A DNA stretch of 64,000 nt from Octopus vulgaris (lineage: Eukaryota). Position 1 is the stretch's first letter; the number at the start of each line of letters is the position of its first letter. The notes below the pieces were generated by a model, which saw only the letters and a list, made by a program, of their open reading frames with translations, made no database searches and had not been told where the DNA came from. The position numbers and the translations under genes are program-made. Shown piece by piece: positions 48,945-63,536 of the stretch. The stretch covers positions 115,506,001 to 115,570,000 of the forward strand of contig OX597819.1 of the NCBI GenBank assembly GCA_951406725.2, written 5' to 3'.

Positions 48945-49049
48945 ATGTCAATGTCTTTAAAGAAATTTATGTTCTCCATAAATCTTGTATCTTTGGGATT
49001 TTTCTTGCTGATATCGTTTCAATGTATAGTCACGTTGGCAGAAGCTAAG
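48945..49049 (+). CDS. iGluR/IR-like receptor copy 2, first coding exon (signal peptide)
   Basis: MSMSLKKFMFSINLVSLGFFLLISFQCIVTLAEAK has a basic n-region, a hydrophobic h-region and an A-E-A cleavage motif. Donor AAG|GTAGGT is phase 0. An upstream acceptor (tttttAG, 48911-48912) implies a further 5' exon. Confidence 0.75.
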
Positions 49050-49779
49050 GTAGGTTGATTCTAAGTTCATATATTACATTTCAAATATATAGATAAAACA
49101 ATTTCTTTTTCTCCATAATACTCTATTAACCCCCTTTTCCCTCCAGAATCCCATGAGGATATTACATTTTTTTGTCAGTCTTTCTATCTTAACTTCAGTT
49201 TGTAAGATGGAGCCTTTTTCCAGAATATGGTTCCCCCAAATTTAAATGTTTTAAAATTCCTTTATCATACTAGCTACATCACTTGTTCATTTCATTTTGC
49301 TATATCGTAAGAAAGCTTCTAAGCTCAAAGTATTCACTAATTCTAAAATCCCAACATCACTCCGATTGTCTACAATTTGTTAAAGAAACTGTTATTGAAA
49401 AATCGCCAACTGTTTAAGATGATTTAAATACAATGTTCATGTTTTAAAGCCACCCAAGAAACAGGCAAAATACGTTTTGAAAATAGGTAATTTAGTATCA
49501 TTTCTTATACAATGGCGAAAGTTTAGTGAAGATTGTATTTTTCCAAAAGATTTCCACCACTTTCGAATTCTATCTGCAAATCATCTTCAAGATTTACATT
49601 CCTGTTTTACTTACATATTTGAAAAGCTTAGCAGATCGTATTTGATGGTATAAGACGTACTATCTCCCTCTTTCCTCTCACTCTCTCTCTCTTCCCTATC
49701 TCTCTTCCCCTTCCCCCTCTCTCTCTCAAAAGTTCCAAATAATTACATGCATTAAAAAATACCATATTTACAATGGAGG

Positions 49780-51720
49780 GATAGGTGTCCTCATCTTGTT
49801 TGTTGCTATCACAACGTTTCGGCTGATGTACTCTCCAGCCTTCATCAGGTGTTCAGGTGGAATTTGACTAGTGGGGTACACTAAGGTATGTTGCTGATGT
49901 TATTTTTCTGCTGGTTAGTAGCCCGCGCTTTTATCCACTACGCTATATGCCCGTGGGCAATTGTATAGTGAATTTTAGGGTCTATAAACCTAGTATTTTA
50001 TCTTCTCTTAATACTGGTTCCCATATTACATTAATATCTGCACTTCGTCTGCTTAGGGGTTACTATGTCCTAGCATATGTGCTGCCTCTTAATTTTCGTA
50101 TTTTCCAGTGGTGTTCTCTATCAATTATTTTAACTTCATCCTTACAGCGGGATGTGGTCTCCGTTTTTCCAGACATGATCAGCTACACCCGATTCTTCAA
50201 AGTCCCCTCATGTCACATATTTACGATGTTCCTCTACCCTTACTTTAAGGGGACGGCATGTTTCACCTTTGTATAACCTACCACAACTGCATGGGATAGG
50301 GTACACGTAATTCTTGTTCCTAATCTCTTCTATGGATGGTTTTACTCGGAGAAGATATTTGCAAAGTCTTTTCCGAGAGGCCTTTGGCACAGGGTAGACA
50401 GACTGTACTCAATTTACGGGTTTCATGCCCTCCTCTCTTCCTAATTGTGGTGGACAGTATGTTATTTGGGTAGTTGTTGCATAGTAAATTGTTTCTTAGC
50501 CTCATCATTTCTTCCTGGAGTGTATCAATATCATTGCTTAAAGTCTTTGCTCGATGTTTTAGATACTGCGCAATCTCCCTCTTTATACTGTATGGATGGT
50601 TGGAATTGAAGTTGAGGTATTGCCCAGTGAAGGTAGCTTGCGATATACGGATGTCCTGAATCCATGCTCAGTGCGCGTTATTAATACGTCCAGGAATGCT
50701 AACCGATTGTCCTTTTCCTTTTCCATTGCGAACTGTATGGATGGCTTTTATTGAGTTCACATGATCTAGTAGTACTTGGACATCCTCCTGGCGGGGCCAG
50801 AGTATGAAGGTGTCTTCAACATATCGAAGCCTTAGAGTTGGCTTTAGTGATGTTGATCCTAAAGCCTAATTCTTAAAGTATTCCATGTATATATTAGCTA
50901 TTATTGGTGATAATGACAAACCCTTAGCTAAACCATCATCCTGTCGATAGATATCACTATCTACTCTAAAGTAGGTAGTTTCTACGCAGCAAGTCAACAT
51001 TTCCATCAAGGTTTCTATTGGTATACTAGTGCATTCATTTAGAGAGGTATCCGCCACTAGTTTGTCTTGAATCACTGATAGTGCTTCATTGGTTAGGACT
51101 TTGTTAAACAGACTTATCACATCTAGACTAACCATCTAGTTGGATCCTATGGGAGTACCCTTGATCAATTCTGTGAAGTGAGTGGAATTCTTCACATACG
51201 ATATTGACTTACCTGATATGGGTTGGCCATTATCACCAGTAGCAAGTGGCAATCATGTTCTATGGACGTGTCTCTTGAGGCCTGCTGGTGCCTTGCAACC
51301 TTTAGGCAAATGGAACAAGTTGAGGACTCAGTTTGTTTAAGTGCTTGTGGATCATTTACTATGTGTTTTCTTGAGCGGGCGGCAAGGCCTGCTTTGCTTC
51401 GTATCACGAAACCACAATGACGGGAGCAGTGTTTTACCAGCGTGCTTTCATGCTTGCACAATTGTTGGTCCCGGTGCTGGAGTCGACTTTGGTCAAGTCT
51501 TTGAACTGAGAAGAAGCAGGACTTGCGCCAGGTCCTGCGTTCTGATACTTTGTTTTCTCTGGAAAAAAAGAGAATGTTCATCGCTTCAGATTGTTTTTTA
51601 GTTAGTCTTTCAAGCGCAAGTGCAGCCTTCCAACTGACCTTCCTCTTGGGAATTGCTTCGGTATTCTGATATCACACATATGTGAGAGATAACCTGACCA
51701 TCTAAGCTGTATTATGATGT
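49780..51720 (-). mobile_element. Degraded Penelope-like element (RT plus GIY-YIG endonuclease)
   Basis: RT motifs SLDVISLFNKV, YRQDDGLAKGLSLSPIIANIYME and LRYVEDTF; GIY-YIG motif VYPIPCSCGRLYKGETCRPLKVRVEEH; multiple frameshifts. Confidence 0.9.
49810..49851 (-). ncRNA. Minimal hammerhead at the 3' end of the Penelope-like element
   Basis: CAC-CTGATGA-A-GGCTG...CAGCC-GAA-ACGT-T-GTG: intact core, extra A after A9, palindromic ACGT stem III. Confidence 0.75.
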
Positions 51721-61289: not shown

Positions 61290-61672
61290 CTTGAATCGTA
61301 ACTCTCATTTCTGAAGATTGGTATTTAGTCAGTGTGTTACATATCCCAGTACCCCAATAATTACAGGTATAAACCTGAACTGGTAATCTGAATAAAGTAA
61401 CTATAGATTTCTCAATAGTTCAGCATAGGTGTTCTCTTTTTCACTGATCTTCAGCTTTACGTTTACATCCGTTGGGCAGCTAATTTCCACAACACAGTTT
61501 CTCTCCTCTATCCTAAATCATTATATCAGGTTTAATTTCAAGATGGCGGTCCACGATGAAGCCAGGTCAGCTATGGCTTTGACTATTCTCACTGGAACTT
61601 TAGGAAGTTGAAGAGCTTCTAGCTTCCATGAGTGGGGAACGGAATCAAAGGCTTTCTTGTAATCTAGCCACA
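61290..61672 (-). mobile_element. LINE RT/RLE fragments next to a (TATG)n tract
   Basis: WLDYKKAFDSVPHSW (RT motif) and YQFRFIPVIIGVLG. Confidence 0.6.
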
Positions 61673-62787
61673 TTGTATGTATGTATGTATGTATGTATGT
61701 ATGTATGTATGTATGTATGTATGTATGCATTTATGTATGATTGTATGTATGTATGTATGAATGAATGTATGTATGTATGTATGTATGTATGTATGTATGT
61801 ATGTATGTATGTATGTATGTTAGATACAGTCTTTTAGCTATACTTATGTATCTATACTACAATGGAGAAAGCTGCTTACCAACTAGGTATTTGGTATGTA
61901 TTACTAAAAGTACTAAAAGAAAGCAATATTAAAAACTTTACCGTCTGTTACTATTGCATTTGTCACTAATCCTTCTGATGAAAATATTCGGAGTATCCTG
62001 CTGGAAAATATTAACGTATCATGTTTCATGCCAGTTCATAATAATTATGTTTACTTGCTGTGTATAGGTATGACCTCATTATGTACGTCTTTTTGCATGA
62101 TATGCATTATAGCCTCAACCAGTCACTGAATCTTTGAAACAGCTGTAAAGATCTATCTTCATATTGTAATATGGATATGTATGTGTAGCATCTCATATAA
62201 ATGAATTCTTACCACCTATAACAGCCTGATTTGTGATTATAAATACATACACACATACATATTTACCTACACACACATTTATATGTGCATACAAGCATAC
62301 AAGTACACACACACACACACACACACACACACACACACACACACACACACACACACACACACACATATATACATACACATTTAAAAATACATTAAGAATA
62401 GAAAAAAAAGAAAATGCTTTGGAAATTTTATCTTGGAAAATGTATTAATAACATTTTAAAGAAAGTAAACTTCCAGTTTCAGTCGTTTTAAAAGGATGAT
62501 TTAGTCATACTGAAATAAAGGGGAAAATAAATTGAAATAAATTAAATTAATTTAAATCTTTCATCACATCAGCCCCGGAAGTTCATACTTTGCCAACAAA
62601 AGTCAAATGGTGCGGCGTTTCGTGTCTTTCTGACCGTTTCTGGTTGACACCCAAATACACTCACACATGTAAATTTATATATATATATATGCATACATAC
62701 ACATACACACACATATATTTATCACGAACACATACATAGGTACTCATATATTCATATTCATAATTATATATATATATATATTTTTAG

Positions 62788-63536
62788 GATATCGTATTGC
62801 GCCTCGGTCTTATTCTGGAAGAACACTCAGCGTGTTTTGGTGGATATTCGTCTTGGTAACACTGGTTCTTTACATCGGTTCCATGGCAGCGCACTTACTG
62901 GCAAACAGACCAAAGAATGCTTTTCTACCATTCACAACTTTTTATGAAATGGCCAAACAAAGTGAAGTCCGTTATGGGGCCTTAAAATCAGGTTCAACTC
63001 TCCGTTATTTTAAAAGGTCATCAGTTGCTATGGAAAGACGTATTTATGAAAACATCATGAAGAATCAAAGTGTTTTGACATCGTCAACAGAGGAAGGTTT
63101 GCAAAGGGTGCGAGAATCAAATGGCATGTATGCCTATATTATGGAAGGCGATCTGGCTGAATTTTTAGTTAGTCAAAAACCCTGTGACCTTATGGTAGTC
63201 GGAGACATAGGAGATCACTCTTATTCCTTTGTCACGCAGAAGAATTCTTTACTGAGTAATGAGGTAAATCATGCTATTATTAGCCTAAAAGAAATGGATA
63301 TTATTGAACAAATACATAAGAAATGGATGCTGGGTGAATGTCACACGACTATCTTTTGGGAAGTCTTCATGGACGGTCAAGCATACTTTGATAAAATCAC
63401 TTCAATACATGACAACATCTTCAGCGGCCTTAACATCACTTTATTTGCTGGCCCTTTGATAATATTGCTCATTGGAATGATTATAGCTGGATCTTTATTG
63501 GTGGCTGAAGTGTTCCTGTCAGGCGGAGATATCAAG
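62788..63536 (+). CDS. Receptor copy 2, exon encoding M3, S2 and M4 (gene probably continues past the window)
   Basis: Paralog of 7824-8572; acceptor tttttAG, donor AAG|GTAAGT; about 25 amino-acid differences by eye. Confidence 0.95.

Follow-up and report, generated by a model that had tools for sequence, protein, structure and literature searches.

A Phi-class glutamate receptor subunit without an amino-terminal domain in Octopus vulgaris

A locus in Octopus vulgaris (assembly GCA_951406725.2, contig OX597819.1, positions 115,506,001 to 115,570,000 of the forward strand; this stretch of 64,000 nucleotides is termed the window) holds a gene for an ionotropic glutamate receptor (iGluR)-like channel and raises the question of whether an animal receptor in which the signal peptide is joined directly to the ligand-binding segment S1, with no amino-terminal domain (ATD), is complete, to which class it belongs and what it might do. 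A preliminary description, made from the letters alone, had proposed such a gene as a candidate for a lineage-specific receptor family. The gene is transcribed and spliced, lacks an ATD and very probably belongs to a known class, Phi, within which its minimal build and unusual pore have apparently gone unremarked.

Gene model and absence of the amino-terminal domain

The window gene (copy B; a tandem paralog, copy A, begins upstream of the window) has five exons in the window, as first described, with all introns GT..AG, phases of 0, 0, 0, 1 and 0, and 1431 nt that give 477 stop-free codons (Table 1). It does not end at position 63536, as had been supposed, but continues in a sixth exon that brings the full protein to 496 aa. 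The 477-codon product has a leading hydrophobic stretch at residues 7–34 and three further stretches at 157–191, 237–267, and 437–476. Pfam places Lig_chan-Glu_bd on exon 3 and the start of exon 4 and Lig_chan on exons 4–5, and on a 496-aa ortholog (P0005, 98.5% identical) Lig_chan-Glu_bd begins at residue 41 and ANF_receptor, the ATD family, is absent. An AlphaFold model of this ortholog (mean predicted local distance difference test score, 78.8; predicted TM-score, 0.58) contains a helix at 14–33, the first S1 strand at 40–46, and the membrane segments M1 (167–190), M2 (213–224), M3 (236–266), and M4 (444–472). The minimal animal iGluR of ~490 aa with M4 and without an ATD, as put forward in the preliminary description, is borne out.

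Assembled contigs from sequencing runs support the two 5′ junctions that had been predicted, from the signal-peptide exon to a 39-nt micro-exon and on to the first long S1 exon, with the GT..AG joint between exon 1 and the micro-exon present in spliced contigs of all four runs, from four studies. In two runs (X1 and X2) a single contig spans exon 1, the micro-exon, and exon 3, and the 47 letters between the outer matches (41 + 6) are the micro-exon and the first six bases of exon 3, so that nothing else is spliced between them. The contigs were read on exons 1–3 of the paralog (stretch L017, 88% likeness) and assigned to a copy by linked copy-specific letters, because the copies do not differ in exon 1; those of X1, X2, and X9 carry the letters of the window copy past exon 1, while X7 matches copy A. 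The RNA origin of the runs is read from the spliced joints only, and the contigs come without tissue labels and give no depth ranking. The same N-terminus appears in independent annotations of O. sinensis (XP_029637908.1, 496 aa; XP_029637805.1, 494 aa) and in two Argonauta proteins. The expectation that automated annotation may shorten the gene holds in Octopus bimaculoides, where the models are 364 and 405 aa long.

The absence of an ATD from the window gene is confirmed, because the contig joints, the in-frame stops upstream of the start codon (within the stretch spanned by the X2 contig), a null profile search and the matching independent N-termini all bear on it. A profile of 44 ATDs, run against 1980 stop-to-stop pieces of window positions 12000–56913, found no match (best E 2.3), in keeping with the earlier report of no ATD-like exon in 49050–54965; as a control for its sensitivity, held-out 50-aa pieces of ATDs were recovered in three of seven, four of seven, and eight of eight cases. 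Splice signals in intron 1 offer one 33-nt candidate for an alternative exon, which is not ATD-like. That the model is truncated, or a decaying duplicate whose true transcript includes missed ATD exons, has some room in an intron 1 of 5.9 kb and in contigs that attest one form and do not exclude rarer isoforms, but this reading is already largely refuted and highly improbable, given the spliced joints in every run, the lack of any trace of an ATD, the N-terminus shared by the O. sinensis and Argonauta models, open reading frames in both tandem copies and an ATD in none of the 34 members of its clade in the first tree below (longest, 518 aa).

Phi-class identity and relatives

The O. bimaculoides protein XP_014783750.1 (P0007) falls in the 90% cluster of the window protein, with 92% identity to P0005 across 384 aa, and appears under the name GluFIV_Obi, Phi class, in the supplement of Zeng 2021 (PMC8437780). 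Because this counterpart carries that name in a published phylogeny, the window gene can be assigned with high confidence, by sequence comparison, to the Phi-class GluFIV subunits. The same study reports Phi genes in all seven molluscs examined, in four subclasses, with tandem duplication in scallop (including GluFIV) and scallop GluF genes expressed broadly, beyond neurons; one lophotrochozoan Phi clade was recovered by Singh 2025 (PMC12226733). Where the Phi class was defined (Ramos-Vicente 2018, PMC6307864), its members lack Q586 and have a weakened SYTANLAAF motif, and the window protein correspondingly has W226 at this position (the Q/R site) and LYIGSMAAH. With the founding Phi proteins it shares the missing Gln, the degenerate motif, and the retained R485 and E705 (GluA2 numbering), but the founding deuterostome members mostly bear an ATD (335–422 aa in seven of the ten rows shown, of 14, in the Phi table of that paper; 50 in GluF_Pfl), a typical feature though outside the phylogenetic definition, whereas the window gene and the protostome clade have none and carry Trp instead of Leu at the Q/R site.

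Relatives were taken from the best 150 of 2333 cluster-representative hits (no length limit) and 78 hits of a second search, of which 137 proteins of 400–1300 aa were kept, with most of the redundant vertebrate GRIK3 and oyster alleles removed; the 126 proteins covering at least 300 model residues made up the first tree. There the window protein lies within a group of 34 (support 0.99), 27 of which start with a hydrophobic leader and reach S1 within 15–75 residues, while seven are N-terminally short. In a more careful tree of 54 proteins, which was rooted on kainate receptors, held no NMDA, ionotropic receptor (IR) or identified delta sequences and therefore shows a split rather than a rooted clade, a branch at 100/98 sets off 24 ATD-less proteins, away from the AMPA and kainate receptors. 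These join four ATD-bearing and two further ATD-less proteins at 97/93, five of the six being from hemichordates or crinoids; a comparison of accessions linked none of these to the founding GluF list. Named hosts, available for 16 of the 24, are octopods, Sinanodonta, Pecten, Magallana, Haliotis, Lymnaea, Candidula, Babylonia, Liolophura, Owenia, Tubulanus, and Lingula. A profile search from a 30-row alignment was swamped by vertebrate GRIK3 and, in the 120 of 186 matches listed, yielded no further short relatives.

The trees are compatible with a single loss of the ATD and also with several. The approximately unbiased test (P value, p-AU), for which the constraint groups were named after the first tree was seen, did not reject a tree in which all ATD-less proteins including the vertebrate kainate-binding proteins (KBPs) are forced together (p-AU 0.10), or one that unites the protostome and hemichordate ATD-less proteins (p-AU 0.17). 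The placement of the KBPs, with two bird sequences only, is itself unstable: within the kainate receptors in a fast search and beside an unnamed long sequence in the 54-protein tree. The RefSeq label ‘glutamate receptor U1-like’ is attached to several molluscan relatives.

Three relatives have peculiarities of their own. Two copies are likewise present in Argonauta (P0002 and P0003, with adjacent accession numbers), and in P0002 the R485, T655, and E705 sites are occupied by His, Ala, and Asp, such that amino-acid binding may be lost or changed in this copy. A Lineus longissimus protein (P0009, 989 aa), in which a signal peptide precedes S1 at residue 35 and two separate stretches gave matches, possibly represents two ATD-less units fused in one model.

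The gene thus represents neither the lineage-specific family that had been proposed nor a new one: among the relatives recovered, ATD-less forms occur in molluscs (snails, bivalves, and a chiton), an annelid, a nemertean, a brachiopod, and hemichordates, and the gene matches a named class. Already known are the gene model (RefSeq, in the sister species O. sinensis), the Phi/GluFIV class and the named O. bimaculoides counterpart. ATD-less animal iGluRs with M4 are likewise known from the KBPs, in which a signal peptide also directly precedes S1 (as seen here in P0206, 487 aa) and which the preliminary description had omitted from its list of known forms. In the literature searched there was no statement of a group-wide lack of the ATD or of a Q/R-site Trp in protostome Phi, though one may exist in Moroz 2021, Hansen 2021, Andouche 2021 or the alignment figure of Zeng. 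Term look-ups in the available text of PMC8437780, PMC12226733, PMC10642201, PMC12837371, and PMC11682238 returned no statement on ATD-less or Trp-bearing protostome Phi, and that of PMC8437780 has no occurrence of ATD, NTD, amino-terminal or signal peptide. The gain therefore lies in architecture and testability and not in the discovery of a family, as the gene was already catalogued.

Ligand site, pore and candidate functions

Aligned with GluA2 chains, the window protein keeps the equivalents of the glutamate contacts P478, T480, R485, G653-S654-T655, E705, and Y732 (P120, T122, R127, G296-S297-T298, E347, and Y373), with Phe (F93) for Y450, and the glutamate residue set is complete in both octopus copies; G653, T655, and Y732 together have been described as a glutamate signature (PMC12226733). 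The pore departs from that of GluA2. Trp occupies the Q/R site in 26 of 31 clade members (four Leu, one Gln), with Leu in seven of eight deuterostome-group proteins and both KBPs; R230 stands at +4, where GluA2 has D590; and the M3 gate reads LYIGSMAAH against SYTANLAAF, so that Ile takes the place of the gate Thr while the Lurcher-site Ala (A262) is intact. The clade shows wide variation in this gate motif, unlike the conducting AMPA and kainate receptors of the same residue table. The best matches among solved structures are the ligand-binding and transmembrane domains of GluA2 and GluA1 (E 1e-79 to 1e-76). With AMPA receptors, the type behind the RefSeq label ‘glutamate receptor 2-like’, the window protein has the GST and E705 motifs in common, but it lacks the ATD, the Q/R Gln, the acidic +4 residue, and SYTANLAAF, is ~33% identical and lies outside the AMPA branch.

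The two octopus copies differ at 39 of 477 residues (overall dS, the synonymous divergence, 0.088; dN, the nonsynonymous divergence, 0.043). M1–M3 is under purifying selection (dN 0.011, dS 0.065; 3 versus 5 changes), while S1 has dN 0.049 and dS 0.058 (13 versus 4 changes), a dN/dS of ~0.84 that is below 1, rests on these few changes and does not show positive selection. Seven of the S1 changes (residues 92, 95, 97, 124, 125, 126, and 129) lie beside the ligand-contacting residues F93, T122, and R127, which is no more than suggestive.

We give an even chance to the reading that the gene encodes an ATD-less Phi-class subunit that binds L-glutamate outside synapses, passes a weak or partner-dependent current and acts in modulation. 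In such a subunit the signal peptide would be cleaved near residue 34 and S1 would start at residue 40, the clamshell would close on glutamate via the contacts listed above, and subunits would tetramerise without an ATD, through the membrane domain and M4. The missing ATD and a tail of 24 residues would leave the receptor unanchored at synapses; AMPA receptors deprived of this domain are more mobile and poorly anchored there (PMC5370185). The Trp at the Q/R site, the Arg in place of an acidic +4 residue, and the Ile, Gly, Ser, and Met of the gate would narrow and de-charge the pore, so that conductance would be low, Ca2+ entry small, and polyamine block absent. The tandem copies, whose differences lie mostly near the ligand pocket, would have different affinities or kinetics. 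The proposed role, a modulatory or partner-dependent subunit, is modelled on the vertebrate KBPs (chick GLRK/KBP, Xenopus U1; P0206, P0203), which have a signal peptide directly before S1, ~490 aa, and M4 and, as the window protein, no Gln at the Q/R site and an altered gate, but are 30% identical to it and have Leu, not Trp, in the pore. KBPs bind ligand, with high affinity for kainate, and are not known to pass homomeric current. Of the earlier suggestion of a chemosensory or modulatory receptor, the modulatory part is plausible, and nothing found points to the chemosensory one.

Several points weigh against a modulatory subunit of this kind. Purifying selection on M1–M3 and a Trp kept across phyla fit a working pore equally well, and the KBPs fall outside the clade in the 54-protein tree, so that the likeness is one of build and not shown descent. 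Motif-based prediction of ligands often fails (Wang 2026, PMC13648236). The Phi branch is described as largely uncharacterised (PMC10861852), the available part of PMC13648236 lists no Phi gene among those functionally tested, and no functional test of any Phi receptor was found in the literature searched.

Purifying selection on M1–M3 also speaks for a rival reading, in which the protein works by itself as a homomeric cation channel gated by glutamate. Such a channel, the natural counterpart of ATD-deleted receptors, would serve as an extrasynaptic or peripheral glutamate sensor with unusual permeation. All glutamate contacts and the full M1-M2-M3-M4 of the model would be in place for it, as would the Lurcher-site Ala and a hinge-like Gly, and engineered AMPA receptors without this domain do carry current and reach synapses (PMC5370185). 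Four Trp at the narrowest point of a tetramer, Arg at +4, Ile at the gate Thr, and the clade-wide variability of the gate make us regard this channel as possible but tentative, clearly less likely than the modulatory subunit.

It is improbable that the gene belongs to an octopus expansion of IR-like tuning receptors with a chemosensory role and a need for an IR25-type co-receptor. Tuning IRs have lost one or more glutamate contacts, whereas R127, T298, and E347 are intact here. As in most IRs (PMC2924276), no ATD is recognisable, the differences between the copies concentrate in S1 near the ligand contacts, and a mollusc-specific iGluR, GluR-m9, which may or may not belong to this clade, is expressed in bivalve tentacles (PMC11682238). 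The comparison, made by N-terminal length, residues, and published class, otherwise runs the other way: S1 begins at residue 40–41 including the signal peptide, against N-termini of ~200–400 residues in IRs and ~200 in tuning IRs (PMC2924276); the counterpart is classed in AKDF/Phi in a published table; deuterostome relatives exist, whereas IRs are protostome-only (PMC11682238); dN/dS in S1 stays below 1; and the expansion in tandem that had been proposed amounts to two tandem copies and one distant gene of like plan.

Still less probable is that the ligand is some other amino acid or a kainoid toxin, a proposal made for scallop GluF genes and domoic-acid tolerance. The ligand residues do vary in the clade, to the point of His for R485 and Ala for T655 in one Argonauta copy, glycine binders are predicted among scallop GluF (PMC8437780) and ligands switch between close paralogs (PMC13648236), but both octopus copies hold the complete glutamate set.

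As a broader and rather speculative scenario, which we think unlikely in its entirety, protostome Phi may be an ancient, natively ATD-less and Trp-plugged branch, stemming from a single bilaterian loss of the ATD shared with the hemichordate proteins and vertebrate KBPs and engaged in non-canonical glutamate signalling (partner modulation or no ion flux), with the octopod copies tuned apart at the ligand pocket. An ATD-less protostome branch with glutamate contacts and a conserved Trp offers a small natural receptor in which to probe the need for the ATD and the behaviour of a Trp pore, and its build bears on the old question of the role of KBPs. For annotation, ‘partial’ molluscan iGluR models of ~490 aa can be complete.

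Tandem copies, other octopus loci and repeats

A genome search with exon 5 returned 13 matches, two of them at 90–100% identity, and exactly two complete copies lie in the surrounding 144 kb. Exons 1 and 2 are nearly identical between the copies (0 of 105 and 1 of 39 nt differ), whereas exon 5 has diverged (51 of 749 nt), which suggests that gene conversion may have homogenised the 5′ ends of the two copies. One other letter in exon 1 is common to the contigs of both copies and to both O. sinensis proteins.

The third, distant Phi-like gene shares the exon plan of the window gene and has a candidate 30-nt micro-exon; its nearest relatives are P0114, P0079, and P0034, and its M3 reads TYTASLTNY. 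Neither a trace of an ATD within 20 kb upstream of it nor an exon for its signal peptide was found. At 24–30% identity there are several iGluR-like genes with long single exons, candidates for the true IRs or delta-like receptors of the genome.

Table 1. Positions of the receptor exons, related loci and repeats (window numbering unless another stretch is named)
Feature	Position	Strand	Content	Basis
Copy B exon 1	48945–49049 (105 nt)	+	start codon and predicted signal peptide (35 aa; hydrophobic 7–34; A-E-A at exon end)	splice path, contigs, model
Copy B exon 2	54966–55004 (39 nt)	+	micro-exon; first S1 beta strand	contigs; strand 40–46 in model
Copy B exon 3	56914–57105 (192 nt)	+	S1; F93 (GluA2 Y450)	Pfam, contigs, alignment
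Copy B exon 4	59269–59614 (346 nt)	+	S1 end (P120, T122, R127), M1, M2 pore loop with W226 at Q/R site	
Copy B exon 5	62788–63536 (749 nt)	+	R230 (+4), M3 gate, S2 (G296-S297-T298, E347, Y373), M4 (444–472)	
Copy B exon 6	L014:9068–9127 (window-equivalent 73068–73127)	+	19 aa and stop; ~9 kb past window end	
Copy A exons 1–3	L017:4203–4307, 7522–7560, 9430–9621		tandem paralog, upstream of window	
Copy A exon 4	1609–1954	+		
Copy A exon 5	7824–8572	+		
Copy A last exon	11852–11905	+	17 aa and stop	
Third Phi-like gene	G000:C3:23960751–23972650 (L029–L030)			
Single-exon iGluR-like loci	G000:C6:2477868–2478722; C13:17155429–17156235; C13:51930137; C7:24765200			
Penelope-type element, intron 1 of copy B	49760–51700	-	decayed reverse transcriptase and GIY-YIG-like	six-frame translation
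Repeat debris	21410–22081	+		
Repeat debris	38408–38743; 31837–32388; 60320–60865	-		
Dispersed ~134-nt repeat	9205–9337; 20854–20987; 28071–28204; 42497–42630; 44103–44236; 58969–59102			

Intron 1 of copy B had been described as mostly Penelope and LINE debris and microsatellite; Penelope-type sequence is indeed present, but over ~2 kb of the 5.9 kb and hence not mostly. Pfam gave no match for this element, the type of which is a reading of its translation, and a genomic alignment of the copies shows that it is not in the shorter intron 1 of copy A. Elsewhere the window holds ordinary repeat debris, comprising mariner-type transposase fragments (PF01359, PF17906), a Helitron-like Pif1 helicase fragment, and a reverse transcriptase zinc-binding fragment, together with many copies (88–92% identity) of a dispersed repeat of ~134 nt that resembles a short interspersed nuclear element.

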